A DNA stretch of 24,343 bases from the UHGV virus genome UHGV-0344763. The stretch is one strand, 5' to 3'. This document shows, in pieces, positions 1 to 22,714 of the stretch; positions within the stretch are counted from its first letter, which is position 1, and each line of letters opens with the position of its first letter. A program made the translations under genes and the position numbers. The DNA comes from a virus. The notes beneath the pieces are model-generated. The model was not told where the DNA came from. It did not search any database and saw only the letters and a program-made list of their open reading frames with translations.

Positions 1-74
1 ACACCTTTTTAAAATACAGCCCCAATAAACTGCAGAATATTATCCCATATAATATCCTGCAGTTCGTAATGCAC

Positions 75-205
75 TATTCGATAATGGGTCCTGTTGGCCA
101 TTCAATATCCGGTGCAGTTGATGTATCAACACGGTTCAGCAACACCCGATACTTTTTCCAGGCTTCCACCACCAGCACGACAAGATGCCGCATACAGTGA
201 CCCAG
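75..205 (-). pseudogene. 3-prime remnant of a tail fiber assembly (Tfa) gene, fused downstream of the truncated invertase
   Basis: Minus-strand translation after the invertase stop reads ...[30 protein letters not shown], matching the C-termini of the two intact Tfa proteins here (...[16 protein letters not shown]..., ...TDTSTAPDVIWPELPEA). Nucleotides ~97-140 are about 75-90 percent identical to ~1526-1570 (direct repeat). Confidence 0.45.
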
Positions 206-400
206 TCAGTCCAGTTTCCAGACAACCAGTGCGTCACCTTTTTGAAGGCGCTTTAAAGCACGTTTTAATCCAGGTCGGCCTGTCCTTATTCCGCTTAATT
301 TATCTTCAAATATTTGTTCACATCCTGCACAAACAAGAGCGTTTCGTTGCAGGTCTGTATTCTGGTCATTTGTTGATACACGTACATAGCCAATAAGCAT
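206..400 (-). pseudogene. Serine DNA invertase (Pin/Gin/Hin/Cin family), N-terminal ~64 codons only, ended by an in-frame TGA
   Basis: ORF 206..436 contains MLIGYVRVSTNDQNTDLQRNALVCAGCEQIFEDKLSG..RPGLKRALKRLQKGDALVVWKLD, the catalytic N-terminus of Gin/Pin-type invertases (active-site Ser in VRVST). A stop follows KLD where these invertases continue RLGRSMKHL; downstream sequence switches to Tfa-like. Confidence 0.8.
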
Positions 401-426
401 GTTAAATCCCCCTGGTAAAAGCAGGA

Positions 427-933
427 ATGATGCCATTTGCTTGTTATTTCTTCATTTTCATAAACGTTGGTTTAGGAGAAGGCTCAGCATTGCCTGTTGG
501 CGTACCTGTTCCGTGGCCCTCAGCCACTCCGCCAACAGGCTGGCTAAAATGCAATGGTGCGGCTTTTTCTGCTGAAGAATACCCGGAACTGGCAAAGGTT
601 TATCCGACAAATAAATTGCCTGATTTACGCGGTGAATTTATTCGTGGCTGGGATGACGGACGTGGAGTGGATGCCGGGCGACAATTATTATCTTCACAGG
701 GGGATGCAATAAGAAATATTGAGGGATTCGCAGATGGCGGGATCGGTATGTCTTTTGATGCAATCAGAGGGGCTTTTTACGATGCAGGAACACGATCAGC
801 GAGAATGCCGAATAACACAACTACTATAGACAAAACCGATGACCTTGGATTCGACGCCTCTCGTGTCGTGCCAACAGCTAATGAAAACCGTCCACGTAAC
901 ATCGCCTTTAATTATATTGTGAGGGCTGCATAA
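427..933 (+). CDS. Alternative tail fiber C-terminal (receptor-binding) segment, silent inverted copy
   Basis: Translation contains tail-fiber tip motifs (LPVGVPVPWPSATPPTGWLKCNGAAFSAEEYPELAKVYPT); lies opposite to the expressed fiber gene inside the putative invertible segment and lacks the constant N-terminal part. Confidence 0.7.
   Translation: MMPFACYFFIFINVGLGEGSALPVGVPVPWPSATPPTGWLKCNGAAFSAEEYPELAKVYPTNKLPDLRGEFIRGWDDGRGVDAGRQLLSSQGDAIRNIEGFADGGIGMSFDAIRGAFYDAGTRSARMPNNTTTIDKTDDLGFDASRVVPTANENRPRNIAFNYIVRAA
455..482. promoter_or_regulatory. Candidate invertase crossover site (gix/hix-like), left
   Basis: ttcataaacgttggtttaggagaa matches the reverse complement of the site at ~2286-2311 in 18 of 20 core positions (aaacNttggtttNggagaag); the AAACC..GGTTT core resembles hix/gix half-sites. 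Confidence 0.55.
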
Positions 934-1526
934 TGAAACCTGTTTTTGATGAAAATGGGCTGGCTACAGTGCCGGGTGATATGCGTTGTTTTTATTATGA
1001 TGCAGTAACGTCTGAATATACGGGCTGGTCTGATGAATATATTAATACTGGCGTAAGTATGCCCGCCTGTTCCACTGGTATTGACCCGGGCGAATACATT
1101 CCGGGGAAAGTGGCAGTATTTACGGGTAAGGGATGGAGCCATGAAGAAGACCACCGCAATGAGACTGTTTACTCAACCGAAAATGGCGCAGCTGTTACAG
1201 TGGATTATATCGGTGCCATCAAAAACGGTTATGTCACGCTTTCACCGTTAACGCCATATGATAAATGGGATGGTGAGAAATGGGTGACAGATACTGAGGC
1301 ACAGCATAACGCCGCAGTAGAAGCAGCAGAAGCACAGCGCCAGTCACTGATTGATGCTGCAATGGCTTCCATCAGCCTGATTCAGCTGAAATTACAGGCC
1401 GGGCGGAAGCTGACGCAGGCAGAAACCACCCGGCTTAACGCCGTGCTTGATTACATTGACGCGGTGACGGCAACAGACACGAGCACCGCGCCGGATGTCA
1501 TCTGGCCTGAACTGCCGGAGGCGTAG
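933..1526 (+). CDS. Tail fiber assembly protein (Tfa), silent inverted copy
   Basis: 197 aa; C-terminal conserved Tfa motif DYIDAVTATDTSTAPDVIWPELPEA; start overlaps the stop of the upstream fiber segment. Confidence 0.8.
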   Translation: MKPVFDENGLATVPGDMRCFYYDAVTSEYTGWSDEYINTGVSMPACSTGIDPGEYIPGKVAVFTGKGWSHEEDHRNETVYSTENGAAVTVDYIGAIKNGYVTLSPLTPYDKWDGEKWVTDTEAQHNAAVEAAEAQRQSLIDAAMASISLIQLKLQAGRKLTQAETTRLNAVLDYIDAVTATDTSTAPDVIWPELPEA

Positions 1527-1940: not shown

Positions 1941-2588
1941 CTACCGTCCTATCGAAATATAACTGAATCTGTATTGTTGAGAGATATCACTGATTGCCAC
2001 GCGCCACGCTGAATTACTGATATGTTCAAAATTTACAGATAAAACCAGCGGTGCAGGATTCGACGGTTCTGACTGAACGGCATCAGACATGACACTGACT
2101 GAAACAAGCGGTTGATTAGGGAATGGTATAGGGAAGTGTCCACTGATAATGCGGGTCGTGTTCCCTGAAAAAGTGCCAAACTGAACAATATATCCACCTG
2201 GTAGCCTGAACCATCCCGAACCAGAAGCGAATGCTCCCATATCCGGTATCTGATTATCTCCTGTGCCCACATCCCTTTTCGCCGCTTCTCCCAAACCAAG
2301 GTTTTCGAGAGCCGTTTTCACCGTGCCATCCGATTTGATATCGCCAAACGGATTCTTGCGGCTTAACAGCAGCGCACGAAGCGCGGTAAGCAGCTGGTCA
2401 TGCCGCCCCTTCTCCAGGCTGGCACCGGATGCCTCCACCACGCTGCAGAGTTCTTCCTGCAACATATCAAAGTAGTCATCATCCAGATCGGTGGCAGGCG
2501 TGCCGGTCTGGGGGTTACCACGGGTAAAACCGTTCTTACCCGCGCCGAACTTATCCTTCTGCGCGGTTTTCGTGTCTATGCGATGCAT
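1941..2588 (-). CDS. Tail fiber protein (short, e14/Mu-S-like), with a constant N-terminal part of ~92 codons joined to a variable C-terminal segment
   Basis: 215 aa; last gene of the baseplate operon; putative crossover site at codon ~92; C-terminal part shows fiber-tip composition (G/S/N-rich). Confidence 0.8.
2284..2311. promoter_or_regulatory. Candidate invertase crossover site (gix/hix-like), right, inside the fiber gene
   Basis: ttctcccaaaccaaggttttcgagag resembles hixL-type sites (TTCTTGAAAACCAAGGTTTTTGATAA, from memory) and is an inverted repeat of the site at ~457-480. Confidence 0.55.
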
Positions 2589-5185: not shown

Positions 5186-6264
5186 CAGAACGGGTCCTCC
5201 TGTACTCTGGCTTTTTTCTTTTTCCGCGCGCCGGGGGCTTCGGGTTCAGGCAGATAAGCATCAGGTGGGCCGACACGGATTTCCGTCAGGGTGCCGTTCT
5301 GGTCCTGAGTAAACGTGACTTCCGAGACAAGCAGTTCGGTATTGTCGAAACCACAGACCGGATCGAAGACAATCACCCGCTGGTTGGGCTGCCACAGCGT
5401 ACCGTTACCCTGTCGCCAGCCCTGCACCACATAGGTGGTTTCATCCGTCCGCGCCGCCCGTTGTCGGGCTTCAAAGTCAGCACGCGCAATACAGCCTGCC
5501 CCCGTAGCCTGCCCTGTCTGCCTGATATACATCGGACGGTAACGGGCAATAAATGCGTCCTCTGTGCGGGCCCGTAGCGCGGTGGTGGTGGCCTCACCGA
5601 AATCATCGTCGTTTCCGGCACGCTGCCCCGCCACCTGGTAAACAGAAAACCGCTCCCGGATACTCTTCTCCGTATCGCAGGAAAGGATGTTTTCCCCAAG
5701 TACCAGCGCGGTATGTGCCCGCGTTGAGCCAATACCGCCAATCACCAGCCTGCCGTGCGTGTCGTCATAAGCCAGCGCCTGCTGCTGACCGAGTATTTTG
5801 TTAATCACCTCGATCACCGTTTCACCGTGATCAGGCTGGACATCAGGAATAACACCCGACGGCGCACCGCTGTTCACCACCTCAATGCCGAAGGGCGCAG
5901 CAAGCGCCTGCGCAATCTGTACCAGTGATCGTCCGTTAAACTGTGTCGGTTCGGCTGCACAGTCAATCAGGTCAGCGGTCAGACTGCGTCCGGCAATACC
6001 GGTGCTGACCGAACGGGCATCGTAACGAACGGGCGTCGCCTCCACCCAGCCGGTGATCACCAGCTCATCACCAATCAGCACCTCCACTTTTGAACCGTTT
6101 TTAATGCGCGGCTGAAGCGTGGTGATACCCTCATCACCCGGCCACTGGCGGGTGATCTCCACACTGAAATCCCGCGCCAGCCGTTCAATACCGGCACCGA
6201 TGCGCACCGATGTCCAGCCATTCCACTCCCGGCCATTTACCCGTAGCGTGACATTGTCGTTCAT
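5185..6264 (-). CDS. Baseplate hub / tail protein, Mu gpP-like (late control D family)
   Basis: 359 aa; follows the DNA circulation protein as in Mu-like tails. Confidence 0.75.
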   Translation of the reverse strand: MNDNVTLRVNGREWNGWTSVRIGAGIERLARDFSVEITRQWPGDEGITTLQPRIKNGSKVEVLIGDELVITGWVEATPVRYDARSVSTGIAGRSLTADLIDCAAEPTQFNGRSLVQIAQALAAPFGIEVVNSGAPSGVIPDVQPDHGETVIEVINKILGQQQALAYDDTHGRLVIGGIGSTRAHTALVLGENILSCDTEKSIRERFSVYQVAGQRAGNDDDFGEATTTALRARTEDAFIARYRPMYIRQTGQATGAGCIARADFEARQRAARTDETTYVVQGWRQGNGTLWQPNQRVIVFDPVCGFDNTELLVSEVTFTQDQNGTLTEIRVGPPDAYLPEPEAPGARKKKKARVQEDPF

Positions 6265-7631
6265 TGCACTGGCACCTTCAGAGGGATCACCGGCACAAAG
6301 CCGGGATGCGTAATGGCATTACGCCGGATAATGTCCGCGTCACGCGCCGCGTTATCAAACCAGGTCGCCGCCAGCACCAGCGCGGGTAAAACCTCATCCG
6401 GTGTGCGCTGAATGATCCGAGCAGACTGTTCAAGGCGCGTGTTGATATCCGCATTCAGATCTGCTTTCACCCGGCGCAGCGCCAGAAACAGCGCATCGCT
6501 GGTTGTACGGGACAACTCCTTATCAATTGCCGTATTCAGTGTGTCGCGAATGTCGGTCAGTTCTTCCCACGTTGGCAGGTCAACCGTATTTTTCACCGCC
6601 GGTGCATTGTTCAGTGCCGGATGCGTGACGGAAGGCCAGCCGGAGCTCTGCGCGAGTGTTGTTGACTGCCCCACTGCGGCATTCTGCATCACCGCAGAAG
6701 TTGTTGGCGCAGGCAATCGGGTGACGGCATACGCCGCTTCGCTGATTGCAGTCGTACGAAGGGTGCTGGCAACCACGTTACGCTGCTGCGTCGCCGTGGC
6801 GGTGGTTTTACTGTCCGTTTTCCAGACGCCGCGCGGTTGCAGATCGCTGCCAAGGCTGACACCAGAAAGCGTTTTGATCATGGTGACCAGGTCGCTGGCG
6901 TTACCGTAAAGGCGTTTCCCGGTACGCCACATTTTCTGCACCTGCTCAACGAAATTTTTGCCTGACGATGGCGGCGGCAGAAGTACCGAGATATCCCCCT
7001 GCAACAGCCTGGCGGCATCCGATACGGCAGAATCCACCACTTTCATCGCATCAGAAACATACCCAAGCATTGTGCTGACATTACCGACGACGTCGTTCTG
7101 CACAAAATCCGCCACGCCATCGATACTGAAACCGCTGAAGCTGTCACTGATGCAGTCATCCAGTGCAGAACAGGATGACATCAGCGTCTGCGCCGTCGCC
7201 GCACCTGATGTGGGGTAAGAGAGTTCTCCTGCTTCGACAAACTTCAGGTCAAAACGGACAATACGCCCTTCACTCTTCGATGTGCTGACCCGAACTTCCC
7301 CGTCAACACAGACTTTCAGCTCACCGTAAGTCGGATGGACAAGCGTGCCGGGACCGGGTTTATTCAGCGCGTCAATCAGGCGATCGCGCTGGTCAAAGCA
7401 GTCATCTCCCACCACATAAGCCGTGATGGACGGGCGGAAAGTGATTTTCCCCAGGTCCTCGGTATAGGGTTTGTCGCGGTTCGGGTATTCGTGCGTTTCC
7501 ACACGACGGCCGGTTCCCGCACTTTCTTCTTCAACCTTAAACGGCACACCGCGAAATGACGCGTCCTGAAGTCTGTCTTTCCACGTCATATAAACTCCGT
7601 ACATAAAAAATCCCACCGGAGTGGGACTCAT
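6261..7631 (-). CDS. DNA circulation protein (Mu gpN-like)
   Basis: 456 aa directly downstream of the tape measure gene; N-terminal region typical of the Mu N family. Confidence 0.75.
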   Translation of the reverse strand: MSPTPVGFFMYGVYMTWKDRLQDASFRGVPFKVEEESAGTGRRVETHEYPNRDKPYTEDLGKITFRPSITAYVVGDDCFDQRDRLIDALNKPGPGTLVHPTYGELKVCVDGEVRVSTSKSEGRIVRFDLKFVEAGELSYPTSGAATAQTLMSSCSALDDCISDSFSGFSIDGVADFVQNDVVGNVSTMLGYVSDAMKVVDSAVSDAARLLQGDISVLLPPPSSGKNFVEQVQKMWRTGKRLYGNASDLVTMIKTLSGVSLGSDLQPRGVWKTDSKTTATATQQRNVVASTLRTTAISEAAYAVTRLPAPTTSAVMQNAAVGQSTTLAQSSGWPSVTHPALNNAPAVKNTVDLPTWEELTDIRDTLNTAIDKELSRTTSDALFLALRRVKADLNADINTRLEQSARIIQRTPDEVLPALVLAATWFDNAARDADIIRRNAITHPGFVPVIPLKVPVQ

Positions 7632-13931: not shown

Positions 13932-15137
13932 TTACGCCGCTGCAATCTTCAGCAGTTTGATGGCCTGCGAATCTACCAGCATCCCGCCGGTGCGCTTGGT
14001 GGTATAAAAACCGACAAACGGTTTATTGGTGTACGGATCACGCAGAATGCGGGTGCCGATACGGTCAACGATGGTGTAACCCCGTTTGAAGTTACCAAAT
14101 GCAATGGCTTTCGCATCAGCGGCGATATCCGGCATCTGTTCGTTTTCAGCGATACCGTAACCCGCCAGAGAGGACGGCTGCCCCAGTTCCAGCCCCGGAC
14201 GCCACAGATAGTTACCCTCGGTGTCTTTCAGCAGACGGATGGCAAACAGGCTGTTGTTGTTCATCATGAACTTCGCGCCAGTGCGGTGTGCCTTACGCAG
14301 CGTGTAAATCAGTTTGATAATGGCGTCTGCGGTCACCGCCGTCGCGTCGCCGGATACAATATGCTGAAGTTTGCCGAACGCCCGGACCTTGTCGGTTTCA
14401 TCCGTGGATTCATACGCCAGGAACCCTTTCGGCTTCTTGGTACCATCGCCGGTGGTAAAGGCAATTTCTTCCTGTTCGGCAAATTCGGTTGCCAGCTCGC
14501 TGTTGATCCAGGCCTCCACGTTGAAAAAGGCATCATCCAGCATTTTCTGGGTGGCCTGCGGGTTACCGTAGATTTCCCCCATGAAAGGTTCAATCAGCCC
14601 CAGTTTTGAGGTGGCAGTCTGGGAGCGCGCGTCAGTCTCGCCAACCCATCCGGAAGCCGTGCCGCCCAGATTCACCAGTTTTTTGTAGTCGGAACCACCA
14701 ACGGTGATCACCGTGGCTTCCTGACGCATCACCACTTCATCTTTCAGCAGGTTAAGAATGTTGCGATCCAGTTCTTCCGGCACGGCGTAGCCACCGTCTT
14801 CATCGGTGCCCACCTGCAATGCCTTACGCTCCAGATCGCGCAGACCGTCTTCACGGCCTTTACGCAGGAAGCCCACAAACGCCTCTTTATGCTCGGTGGC
14901 CAGTTTATTTTGCGCACCACCTGCCGGACGTTTCAGCTCAAGCAGCTCTTTTTCAAGATCGCTTTTGAGGTTTTCCAGCTCGCTGAGTTTCCCGTTCAGG
15001 GTTTCCACCTGCCCGGCAAGTTTGCCTTTTTCCTGCTCAATCGCATCCACGCGCTTGTCGTTCTTTGCTTTGAAGTCGTCAAACTTCTGCTGCAGCTCCT
15101 GCGCGACCTGTTCGACATCTTTAATATCAACCGCCAT
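13932..15137 (-). CDS. Major capsid protein, HK97 family
   Basis: 401 aa; coiled-coil-like N-terminal delta region followed by capsid domain; follows the prohead protease. Confidence 0.9.
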   Translation of the reverse strand: MAVDIKDVEQVAQELQQKFDDFKAKNDKRVDAIEQEKGKLAGQVETLNGKLSELENLKSDLEKELLELKRPAGGAQNKLATEHKEAFVGFLRKGREDGLRDLERKALQVGTDEDGGYAVPEELDRNILNLLKDEVVMRQEATVITVGGSDYKKLVNLGGTASGWVGETDARSQTATSKLGLIEPFMGEIYGNPQATQKMLDDAFFNVEAWINSELATEFAEQEEIAFTTGDGTKKPKGFLAYESTDETDKVRAFGKLQHIVSGDATAVTADAIIKLIYTLRKAHRTGAKFMMNNNSLFAIRLLKDTEGNYLWRPGLELGQPSSLAGYGIAENEQMPDIAADAKAIAFGNFKRGYTIVDRIGTRILRDPYTNKPFVGFYTTKRTGGMLVDSQAIKLLKIAAA

Positions 15138-19988: not shown

Positions 19989-20007
19989 CAATTATCATCT
20001 CGATAAA

Positions 20008-20328
20008 CTAAATCAGATCACCAATGTATTTTGCACTAATTGAAATTTGCATCTGAGGCATTCCGACCACAGATCCATTTAACAGGTAATCACGTCCTCG
20101 TTCCTGCAAAGAAAGACTCAATTCAAAGTTCTTTACCCCAGGGAAAACCGAGGTGACATTTAAATCATGCTGCGATACGCGCAGAATAAGTTGGCTACCG
20201 TCAATTTTTCCCTGATACGTAAAACCAAAATCTCCGCCGTTTACTGCATTGTTTTTGACAACTACGGTACCATTACCAAAATCACGTTGATTGCTTCTGA
20301 AAACAACAAAATAGATACCATCTTTCAT
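20008..20328 (-). CDS. Hypothetical protein, low-GC moron between lysis cassette and HNH/cos
   Basis: 106 aa, no signal peptide; markedly AT-rich compared with flanking phage genes; AT-rich upstream region with promoter-like hexamers; own terminator. Confidence 0.7.
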   Translation of the reverse strand: MKDGIYFVVFRSNQRDFGNGTVVVKNNAVNGGDFGFTYQGKIDGSQLILRVSQHDLNVTSVFPGVKNFELSLSLQERGRDYLLNGSVVGMPQMQISISAKYIGDLI

Positions 20329-20420
20329 GTGTAAAGCCCTTTAAAAGAGTCACCAAAATCAGGTGCTTTGTATCTATTGGGCCATCACATATCAAATCAA
20401 GGAACAAAACAAAGTTAACA

Positions 20421-20690
20421 TCATTTTTTTTGCATGATGTGACCACGCTCAACTTCAATCCTTCTGATGTCAGCTTTATCGGTATTACACTGCGCCAATG
20501 CAGACAACAAGGCGACATTCAGATCTAAGCTCGAGCCCCACGTAAAATGATCAGGTAAATCAGGCTGAGGGGTTTCAGCCGTCAGGCTGGCTGGTAACGG
20601 AACTACCGGAACCTGGACGTAAACTGTTCGCGTACTTCCGCAACCGGTCAGCAGCGGCAGCAGGCACAGGACGTGAAGCACAATCATCAT
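20421..20690 (-). CDS. Rz1-like o-spanin (outer-membrane lipoprotein)
   Basis: Internal start MMIVLHVLCLLPLLTGCGS... with lipobox LTGC and Pro-rich mature part; begins inside Rz in another frame and extends past its stop. Start codon choice uncertain. Confidence 0.6.
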   Translation of the reverse strand: MMIVLHVLCLLPLLTGCGSTRTVYVQVPVVPLPASLTAETPQPDLPDHFTWGSSLDLNVALLSALAQCNTDKADIRRIEVERGHIMQKK

Positions 20691-20967
20691 CCGCAACAGC
20701 CACTTTGATATCTTCCTGGGTTCTCTGTGACTCCAGTGCGATCTGCTGTTTTGCATGCTGGTTAGCCTCTATAACTGTATTGATGATTTGCAGTGATTGC
20801 AGGACGTTACTGGTAATGGCTGTTGCAGATTCAGCATTTCGTACAGCCTCATCAGCACGCTCCTTTTCGTGTTGATATTTGCTGTAGTAATGCCCGGCAG
20901 ACCAGATAAAAGAACCGATGACGGTAACAAAGAAGGCAACAATAACCAGCTTATATCTCAGCTTCAT
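20575..20967 (-). CDS. Rz-like i-spanin
   Basis: 130 aa; N-terminal TM helix (LVIVAFFVTVIGSFIW) then charged helical region; immediately downstream of endolysin. Confidence 0.7.
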   Translation of the reverse strand: MKLRYKLVIVAFFVTVIGSFIWSAGHYYSKYQHEKERADEAVRNAESATAITSNVLQSLQIINTVIEANQHAKQQIALESQRTQEDIKVAVADDDCASRPVPAAAADRLRKYANSLRPGSGSSVTSQPDG

Positions 20968-21427
20968 TTACCACCCCACCAGCTTCTTTAAATCGGGAAA
21001 TCAGGTCACCGATTCTATGTTCATACTGACCGTAACCTGCACCAGGTAACGACGCCCAGATATTGCTGCAACGGTCGATTGCCTGACGAATATCGCCGCG
21101 GTCAATCATCGGTAAAGCGCCACGCTCTTTAATCTGCTGCAGCGCTACAGCATCCTGACTTTCTGGAGAAAAATCTTTCAGACCAAGTTGCTTGCGGTAG
21201 GAATCCCACCAGCGAGAAAGAAGCTGGTAACGTCCGGCGGCTGTTGATTTGAGTTTTGGGTTTAGCGTGACAAGTTTGCGAGGGTGATCGGAGTAATCAG
21301 TGAATAGCTCTCCGCCTACAATGACGTCATAACCATGATTTCTGGTTTTCTGACGTCCGTTATCAGTTCCCTCCGACCACGCCAGCATATCGAGGAACGC
21401 CTTACGTTGATTATTGATTTCTACCAT
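20951..21427 (-). CDS. R: Endolysin R (lambda-type lytic transglycosylase)
   Basis: 158 aa, [39 protein letters not shown]... closely matches my recollection of lambda R. Confidence 0.9.
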
Positions 21428-21734
21428 CTTCTACTCCGGCTTTTTTAGCAGCGAAGCGTTTGATAAGCGAACCAATCGAGTCAGTACCGATGTAGCCGAT
21501 AAACACGCTCGTTATATAAGCGAGATTGCTACTTAGTCCGGCGAAGTCGAGAAGGTCACGAATGAACCAGGCGATAATGGCGCACATCGTTGCGTCGATT
21601 ACTGTTTTTGTAAACGCACCGCCATTATATCTGCCGCGAAGGTACGCCATTGCAAACGCAAGGATTGCCCCGATGCCTTGTTCCTTTGCCGCGAGAATGG
21701 CGGCCAACAGGTCATGTTTTTCTGGCATCTTCAT
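21411..21734 (-). CDS. S: Holin S (class I, lambda S107/S105 type with MKM dual start)
   Basis: 107 aa, [39 protein letters not shown]... matches lambda S as I recall it; three TM segments. Confidence 0.9.
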
Positions 21735-21737
21735 GTC

Positions 21738-21755
21738 TTACCCCCAATAAGGGGA
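21738..21755 (-). promoter_or_regulatory. Stem-loop over the S ribosome-binding site (sdi-like)
   Basis: Minus-strand sense CCCCttattGGGGGtaagacATG: the hairpin 3-prime arm overlaps the Shine-Dalgarno region for Met1. Confidence 0.5.
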
Positions 21756-21976
21756 TTTGCTCTATTTAATTAGGAATAAGGTCGATTACTGATAGAACAA
21801 ATCCAGGCTACTGTGTTTAGTAATCAGATTTGTTCGTGACCGATATGCACGGGCAAAACGGCAGGATGTTGTTAGCGCGACCTCCTGCCACCCGCTTTCA
21901 CGAAGGTCATGTGTAGAAGGCCGCAGCGTAACTATCACTGATGAATTCAGGATAGCCAGTGGCTACGGCTCAGTTA

Positions 21977-22052
21977 TGGTGCTGTTTAACGGACTTGAAC
22001 CGCTACCCATTCGCTTACAAGGCGACCGCTCTACCATTGGAGCTAAAACAGC
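21977..22052 (-). tRNA. tRNA, anticodon UGU (Thr) by hand folding
   Basis: GCTGTTTTAGCTCCAATGGTAGAGCGGTCGCCTTGTAAGCGAATGGGTAGCGGTTCAAGTCCGTTAAACAGCACCA: perfect 7-bp acceptor stem, D-arm with GG, TTCAAGT T-loop, encoded CCA; one G.A mismatch at the top of the anticodon stem. Confidence 0.7.
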
Positions 22053-22057
22053 ATGTT

Positions 22058-22132
22058 TGGCGGGACAGCGTGGACTCGAACCACGATAAGAAGGTTAACA
22101 GCCTTCCGTAATCACCTTTATACGACTGACCC
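22058..22132 (-). tRNA. tRNA-like gene, anticodon GUU (Asn-like), atypical
   Basis: GGGTCAGTCGTATAAAGGTGATTACGGAAGGCTGTTAACCTTCTTATCGTGGTTCGAGTCCACGCTGTCCCGCCA: perfect anticodon stem and CUGUUAA loop, canonical T-arm, encoded CCA, but mismatches in acceptor stem (T.T) and D-stem. Confidence 0.5.
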
Positions 22133-22136
22133 AAAT

Positions 22137-22178
22137 AAAAAAAGCCACCGTTGCAACTTAAGAGTCACTAACGGCAGC
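22137..22178 (-). terminator. Candidate tR-prime-like terminator of the short constitutive late transcript
   Basis: Minus-strand sense gctgccgtt...aacggtggc followed by TTTTTTT, ~40 nt downstream of the candidate late promoter; stem is imperfect. Confidence 0.4.
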
Positions 22179-22188
22179 TTACCTTCTA

Positions 22189-22218
22189 ATTATGGCTAAA
22201 TGGATAATTGCATGTCAA
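22189..22218 (-). promoter_or_regulatory. Candidate late promoter (pR-prime-like) overlapping the 3-prime end of Q
   Basis: Minus-strand sense TTGACA (plus ~22213-22218), 18-bp spacer, CATAAT (plus ~22189-22194). Confidence 0.5.
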
Positions 22219-22714
22219 GGCTTTTAACAGCAACATGCTTAACTTTCTCAACACGTTTACGCATTTTGAAAGCATTTTGCATTGGCTGGTACAAAACAAA
22301 TAACGATGCTTTCAGGATGTCGTCAATTTCGTTTCTACAGGTTGCTAGTGAAGGTTTTCTCCATCCCTCGCCACCACGTCCACACATCTTGCGTGGCTTT
22401 GCAGTCGCGTGATAGTAGGATGCAATTGCTCGCTTAGATGAACCATGAGCGTAGTAGCTGAGGAGGATGCCAAAGGCTTTCTTGTCAATGCACATGACGG
22501 AATCGACGACCTGAGAAATCAACATTCCATCATCATCATTGCACATTGGCCTTGTCATAACTCTTCCCGGCTCTACGCTCTCCATGAACTTCGCTATTAC
22601 GCTGCTCATGCGCTTTTCCAGACGACCTGAATAAACCCATGCGCCCCACAGTTCAAGCCAGCCATTCAGCCACTCATGCTGTTCTTTGGTGAGGTTTAGT
22701 TCTCTTATGCCCAC
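22196..22714 (-). CDS. Late antiterminator Q (non-lambda Q type)
   Basis: 172 aa located between the nin/phosphatase genes and the lysis cassette, ending at a strong promoter plus nearby terminator; Cys-containing central region. Assignment is mainly positional. Confidence 0.6.

Follow-up and report, generated by a model that had tools for sequence, protein, structure and literature searches.

The closest described relative of the locus analysed here is the P-segment/PinE switch of prophage e14 in E. coli K-12 (Plasterk and van de Putte 1985 and Mehta et al. 2004, as cited in PMC4272514), which comprises the constant part of a fibre gene, an invertible segment with two alternative C-termini and two tfa genes, and an invertase gene reading away from them. 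The cargo of e14 is mcrA, and its site is icd. The second relative is the G segment of phage Mu with its intact invertase Gin (193 aa) and the sis enhancer. Enhancers of this kind have been described as spanning 65 bp, flanked by two Fis sites and located approximately 100 bp from a hix site (PMC3798978). Invertases of this family also act beyond their own elements: the P segment of e14 is inverted in trans by PinQ, which is encoded in prophage Qin (PMC12529663), and Fin acts on Salmonella hix (Kutsukake 2006, cited in PMC4272514). PinQ/PinR on e14 and Fin on hix are precedents for a segment flipped by the invertase of another prophage. A third relevant arrangement is the lambda-type stf-tfa-dgcX right end at attB, where dgcX is carried along on lambdoid prophages (PMC4287979).

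The DNA analysed, referred to as the window, is a stretch of 24,343 nucleotides from UHGV virus genome UHGV-0344763. It shares the layout of the e14 switch as well as its type of crossover site and tail genes, but its invertase gene consists of codons 1 to 77 with an internal stop, fused to the end of a lambda-type tfa gene, and its cargo and site are dgcX and att-lambda. Nucleotides 21-190 of the invertase stump are of the Mu gin type, and the commoner version of the fusion, found in other genomes, adjoins a Mu-type gixR site and G segment; in contrast to Mu, however, those loci carry the G segment on a lambda-type Stf, and the window has an e14-type P segment instead. Positions 1-171 correspond to the tfa 3' end and the spacer before dgcX of the lambda-type right end, from which the window differs in that only approximately the last 29 tfa codons remain, stf and the rest of tfa being replaced by an invertible cassette and the invertase stump. 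Whereas the target segments of PinQ/PinR and Fin keep their own invertases, any flipping here would depend wholly on supply in trans. Judged from its sequence, the system may be classed as a decayed member of the Gin/Pin invertible tail-fibre switches, with an e14 P-like layout and a Mu gin-like stump, in which the invertase has been lost and the cis elements have been retained. On the whole, we consider it quite probable that 74-400 represents an inherited, illegitimate in-frame gin/pin-tfa join at the right end of a lambdoid prophage at att-lambda, with a dead invertase beside an orphan switch that is competent in cis and could be flipped in trans. The features are listed in Table 1.

Table 1. 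Features of the decayed tail-fibre switch, in window coordinates
Feature	Position	Strand	Basis or remark
Spacer from the dgcX stop (immediately outside the left edge of the window) to the tfa fragment	1..73		Right end of a lambda-type prophage at att-lambda
3' fragment of lambda-type tfa	74..168	-	Approximately the last 29 codons; stop at 76-74
Recombination junction	164..171	-	Three-way base-by-base comparison with intact pinE and intact tfa
5' stump of a Gin/Pin-family serine DNA invertase gene	169..400	-	Codons 1-77 of 184; alignments to pinE and Mu gin
Presumed Fis-dependent recombinational enhancer (sis)	316..379	-	Stump nt 21-112 identical to Mu gin
Invertase-proximal crossover site, 26 bp, pix/gix-like	455..480		TTTTCATAAACGTTGGTTTAGGAGAA, central TT at 467-468
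Invertible P-type segment	481..2285		ORFs; Pfam Collar, Caudo_TAP twice, Gp53-like_C
Silent alternative fibre C-terminus	to 933	+	Within the invertible segment
tfa of the silent fibre	933-1526	+	Within the invertible segment
Currently expressed tfa	1938-1498	-	Within the invertible segment
Currently expressed fibre C-terminus	to 1941	-	Within the invertible segment
Distal crossover site, 26 bp, inverted	2286..2311		TTCTCCCAAACCAAGGTTTTCGAGAG, central AA at 2298-2299; inside the tail-fibre gene
Constant N-terminal part of the tail-fibre gene	2312..2588	-	96% identity to the annotated LZYWN_4 prophage

On the minus strand, one continuous frame extends from 436 to 62 and is translated as MASFLLLPGGFNMLIGYVRVSTNDQ... 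The first 64 invertase residues are encoded by 400 to 209. The ATG at 400 is the start homologous to those of gin and pinE, and the ATG at 436 is an extra in-frame codon upstream of it. A first-pass annotation had assigned the fused gene to 75-436, and both ends of this interval were adjusted: 75 lies within the tfa stop codon, and 436 is the upstream ATG rather than the homologous start. The same annotation described a Gin/Pin-type N-terminus that continues through VVWKLD and then meets a TGA, and this description was confirmed. The 64-aa stub matched the Pfam Resolvase family (PF00239, profile positions 2-73 of 145, E 3.5e-18), and the TGA at 208-206 stands in place of Arg65, which is encoded by CGG in intact pinE. 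Pin-like sequence runs past this TGA to approximately nucleotide 169, with two substitutions relative to pinE (Arg68 to His and Ser69 to Cys), and invertase codons 78-184 are missing. The YxRVST nucleophilic-serine motif of the N-terminal catalytic domain is present in the stub (MLIGYVRVST; catalytic Ser9). The catalytic domain is nevertheless incomplete: the conserved arginines after VVWKLD are altered, helix E is gone, and the homology to Pin stops at codon 77 of 184. Helix E forms the dimer and tetramer interface in serine recombinases. The C-terminal helix-turn-helix DNA-binding domain is also absent, its place after codon 77 being taken by tfa-derived sequence, and the gene was therefore regarded as a pseudogene and not as a functional member of the subfamily. 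As the annotation had proposed, the gene is a pseudogene twice over, by the nonsense codon and by the loss of codons 78-184, and because of that loss the enzyme is dead. No promoter or terminator was found in a consensus scan of positions 1-700.

For the tail of the fusion, Pfam gave a match to Caudo_TAP (PF02413; positions 104-130 of the 131 in the profile, E 1.3e-12), which upholds the suggested fusion to a Tfa C-terminus; the full-length domain is not present. The intact tfa homologue of the O104:H4 strain C227-11 encodes 194 aa, and window 1-171 was 96.5% identical to the end of this full-length gene and its spacer, and 96.5-97% identical to lambda-type right ends with dgcX in general. In RefSeq, a sequence identical to the fragment carries the label 'tail fiber assembly protein, incomplete, missing N-terminus'. 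The repeat reported earlier between approximately 97-140 and 1526-1570 is real; a repeat search mapped it as a direct repeat of 93-139 and 1523-1569 with 74% identity, and it reflects the fact that two tfa genes are homologous at their C-terminal ends.

The first-pass annotation had also proposed that the exact junction could be mapped and that an undeleted ancestral arrangement should be sought in related prophages. Both were achieved. Undeleted relatives of both parents exist, namely an intact pinE (184 aa) in the prophage of strain LZYWN_4 and the J-lom-stf-tfa-dgcX arrangement of O104:H4 C227-11, and the join was delimited by comparison with pinE and tfa from these two sources. G169 matches the pin parent only and T168 the tfa parent only, while GGA at 167-165 is common to both; as both parent genes are proxies, the exact crossover nucleotide depends on them. 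Pin codon 77/78 is joined to approximately tfa codon 166, and the reading frames of the two parents coincide at this point. The three-way comparison found no extended homology between the parents at the junction beyond this GGA, and the join was thus considered illegitimate. A site-specific origin of the junction at a pseudo-crossover site was rejected, since the junction is unlike the 26-bp sites and lies inside a coding region.

The cis parts of the switch were examined in the same stretch. The two 26-bp crossover sites were located by eye and by alignment, as the repeat search did not pick them up. Each of them matches Mu gixR at 18 of 26 positions, and their central dinucleotides are complementary. 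An in-silico flip of the segment between them exchanged the 215-aa fibre (Gp53-like_C) for an in-frame 251-aa fibre (Collar domain), each end having its own tfa. The tail genes upstream of the tail-fibre gene are of the e14/SfV myovirus type (YmfQ, baseplate J, gp46, V, and others). The stump itself is a mosaic by alignment, its Mu gin-type part being preceded (nucleotides 1-20) and followed (nucleotides 191-232) by sequence of the e14/PinE type, to which the region upstream of the stump also belongs. The match to phage Mu is confined to window 210-399 (95.8% identity), and stump nucleotides 21-112 are 100% identical to Mu gin. This agrees with the earlier suggestion that the enhancer-bearing 5' part of the invertase gene might have been kept. 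The presumed enhancer contains two G-N13-C cores (379-365 and 330-316), which lie 49 bp apart from start to start and span 64 bp, and the nearer core, measured centre to centre, is approximately 95 bp away from the proximal crossover site. This layout fits the published description of the enhancer (PMC3798978), and its function is presumed from the identity to Mu gin. The cis parts needed for flipping, which are both crossover sites and the presumed enhancer region, thus appear to survive. No second invertase gene was found within the 24-kb window, either in the ORF lists or in the annotation of homologous prophages. Farther along the window, phage-borne tRNA-Thr(tgt) and tRNA-Asn(gtt) genes are located at 21977-22132 on the minus strand, just beyond the ORFs at 20008-21734, which by their position should be lysis genes. 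The same two tRNA genes lie between the holin and Q antiterminator genes in the prophage of E. coli PSS-11.

The chromosomal context was derived from E. coli PSS-11, which is 100% identical to the window over 1-481. In this strain, a sensor diguanylate cyclase gene ends at the base preceding window position 1 and is followed by ybhB-bioA; owing to the identity, the window can be said to start at the base after the cyclase stop. The cyclase is presumably dgcX of PMC4287979. The lambda-type order of J-lom-stf-tfa, a convergent diguanylate cyclase gene, and ybhB-bioA (att-lambda) occurs in hundreds of E. coli genomes, and right ends bearing dgcX were counted at att-lambda in 767 genomes. Among 5,426 complete E. 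coli genomes, the junction together with the TGA was present in about 100-150, at no fewer than three chromosomal sites, and 96 carried window 1-436 beside dgcX at att-lambda. The TGA at codon 65 was found in every copy examined, and the copies at the Rac site and on the ompW/trp side have the junction, TGA, His68, and Cys69 all as in the window. This set of shared features at several sites indicates a single origin. The first-pass annotation was correct in recognizing a recombination scar in which most of the invertase gene had been lost, but its proposal of a local deletion in this prophage did not hold, as the junction is shared across many E. coli genomes and several loci. The scar is evidently an old, inherited junction between two prophage types and not a private local deletion.

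The sequence on either side of the scar varies. In the copies at the Rac site and on the ompW/trp side, the homology to the window begins at 92-93, and a wider survey of copies outside att-lambda gave 86-96; the last Tfa residues vary by locus. On the other side, strain 1409 shows zero differences from the window over 1-379 and the first ones at 380, and beyond this position the majority of genomes show the gin start and gixR of the Mu type, followed by a Mu-like G segment that has been grafted onto a lambda-type Stf. Only the window, PSS-11, and PSS-08-1 were found to have a crossover site and P segment of the e14 type there. The best whole-window matches among the 5,426 genomes begin at 2285 or at 165, and none of these genomes has the scar, an intact P segment, and the full myovirus tail module together. 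No junction-spanning record was found in the phage collection or among genuine plasmids; a few records of the plasmid collection, possibly chromosomal fragments, match 86-436. An exact-pattern scan of the GTDB species representatives with a junction 23-mer gave one match. This was a 2.5-kb contig of a metagenome-assembled genome labelled 'Bacillota bacterium' (JAEWTL010000008.1), positions 3-401 of which are 98.5% identical to window 1-399. The contig is almost certainly a contaminating or mis-binned E. coli scar and gives no evidence of spread to other species.

Two other loci showed further decay or rearrangement. In PSS-11, the distal crossover site of the P segment (14276-14301 of the extracted locus) abuts a DUF2158 gene and IS3 copies, with no constant part of a fibre gene, a context that could have arisen from a deletion or from recombination at a secondary site. 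PSS-08-1 carries two decayed e14-type switches (260-2953 and 20001-22257 of the extracted locus). One has a frameshifted fin invertase gene, and the other has the gin'::'tfa scar, its P segment being cut at window-equivalent position 2248 by an integrase fragment and a tRNA-Ser gene. The cut precedes the distal crossover site, and this copy really is locked.

The most economical origin of the scar that we infer is a patch replacement, in which a lambda-type right end (stf-tfa-cargo) would have gained an invertible fibre cassette and the first 232 nucleotides of the invertase gene. The right-hand crossover of the patch would fall inside the invertase gene, and the resulting illegitimate in-frame join of invertase codon 77/78 to approximately tfa codon 166 would have removed helix E and the DNA-binding domain. 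The scar may then have spread among lambda-like prophages, with recombination in the last ~25 nucleotides of tfa exchanging the downstream cargo. In the lineage of the window, recombination in the conserved first ~20-40 nucleotides of the invertase gene would have swapped the Mu-type G segment and lambda-type fibre for the e14-type P segment and the myovirus tail module. The product would be an orphan switch that cannot flip itself but could be inverted if another locus of the same cell encodes an invertase of the Pin family. The scar could instead have arisen by a deletion between tandem prophages at att-lambda, from the right-end invertase gene of the first to the right-end tfa of the next. 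The pin stump and tfa fragment are co-oriented as in tandem lysogens, and att-lambda is used by many lambdoid phages, dgcX-bearing right ends being common there. However, in most scar loci the cassette is preceded by J, lom, and the N-terminal domain of a lambda-type Stf, to which it is attached, as patch replacement predicts, and no tandem intermediate was seen. We consider the tandem deletion unlikely, and the present sequences would fit either origin.

The first-pass annotation regarded the switch as probably locked unless another prophage supplies an invertase. The proviso fits the observations, and the locking was probably stated too strongly, given the intact cis sites, the occurrence of both orientations, and the exchange inside a crossover site. 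Strains 2018-02-2CC and STEC309 have an identical scar and differ by a clean inversion of a 3.09-kb segment with 99.68% identity. In the inverted repeats of this pair, the outer half-sites differ and stay put, and the exchange occurred inside a 25-bp identical stretch containing the gix centre. Such an interval would be expected for site-specific exchange and would be a poor substrate for RecA. The scar-bearing loci were in orientation A in 97 genomes and in orientation B in 58, with A:B ratios, approximate because they were derived from combined counts, of ~67:27 at att-lambda and ~30:31 at the other loci. The junction and the TGA are common to all copies, and the flips are therefore younger than the scar; the two orientations reflect flips between lineages rather than ongoing switching. 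In PSS-11, identity to the window extends as far as 481, at or within the proximal crossover site, and is taken up again in inverted orientation; its P segment is only 94.4% identical to that of the window, and the two are thus not a clean before-and-after pair.

It is rather improbable that the switch is truly locked and that both orientations arose by RecA recombination between the inverted repeats, or before the scar, with no invertase in trans. The search for possible suppliers lends this explanation something: when the 3' part of a Pin-type invertase gene was used as the query, 64% of E. coli genomes had similar sequence, a prevalence for E. coli overall and not for the scar-bearing genomes specifically, and the remaining 36% gave no match. 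In some scar genomes, such as 2018-02-2CC, only one Gin/PinE-like place was found at megablast sensitivity. Against it stand the 25 bp of identity shared by the repeats, the diverged half-sites that stay put, the junction and TGA that precede the flips, and the frequency of both orientations at both classes of locus, and trans action among Pin-family invertases is documented (PMC12529663). Flipping by invertases supplied in trans is the probable explanation, and 'locked' is probably wrong at the population level. At the Rac site of FORC_082 (5304-6309 of the extracted locus), the scar has an intact pinR in convergent orientation as its immediate neighbour. PinR may be the natural partner of the orphan segment at this site, and its proximity may account for the tolerance of the loss of gin there.

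The retained start codon, upstream region, and catalytic Ser9, together with the in-frame joining of the stump to tfa, raise the question of whether the 64-aa stub, or a fusion of 107 aa made by read-through, has a function as a protein and could, for instance, modulate other invertases. In many genomes, RefSeq/PGAP also lists the identical 64-aa stump (window 206-400) among the normal coding sequences, under the name 'recombinase family protein' (WP_001378636.1); one genome has it annotated instead as a single 327-nt pseudogene with an internal stop. Such a function is very improbable. The stub has neither helix E nor a DNA-binding domain, a stop codon stands at the position of Arg65 and His at that of Arg68, an in-frame join is expected by chance in one of three cases, and at least one scar copy (PSS-16) has a further-damaged stump. 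Finally, there is a negligible chance that the scar is a recent deletion confined to this genome, or that errors of assembly or sequencing hide an intact invertase in the real chromosome, for although one window alone would be compatible with mis-assembly across the repeated tfa C-termini (93-139 and 1523-1569), the same junction, TGA, His68, and Cys69 are found in more than 100 independently assembled complete genomes at three chromosomal loci, and RefSeq annotates the invertase and tfa fragments in those genomes.

The finding is one of ordinary prophage mosaicism and decay, with one mildly interesting feature, an apparently trans-dependent switch that lacks an invertase and has spread to several loci. 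For annotation, it means that the 64-aa 'recombinase family protein' of many E. coli genomes is a dead stump and that the tail-fibre segment next to it should be regarded as a switch that lacks an invertase but is competent in cis. The scar also illustrates the reshuffling of lambdoid right ends by recombination within two short conserved stretches, of which one is the 5' end of the invertase gene and the other the 3' end of tfa. In a broader reading, which we put forward tentatively, the gin'::'tfa scar would mark a family of orphan invertible fibre cassettes that have no invertase of their own, keep their crossover sites and an enhancer-bearing stump, have become distributed over lambda-like prophages at several integration sites in E. 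coli, and continue to be switched by whichever Pin-family invertases the other prophages of the host supply. PinQ-driven inversion of cryptic-prophage fibre genes blocks the adsorption of phage T2 (PMC12529663). If the broader reading is true, the expression of a fibre, or of a fibre-derived defence protein, in one prophage would depend on another, and the locus, if flipping in trans is confirmed, would be a natural example of cross-prophage dependence.
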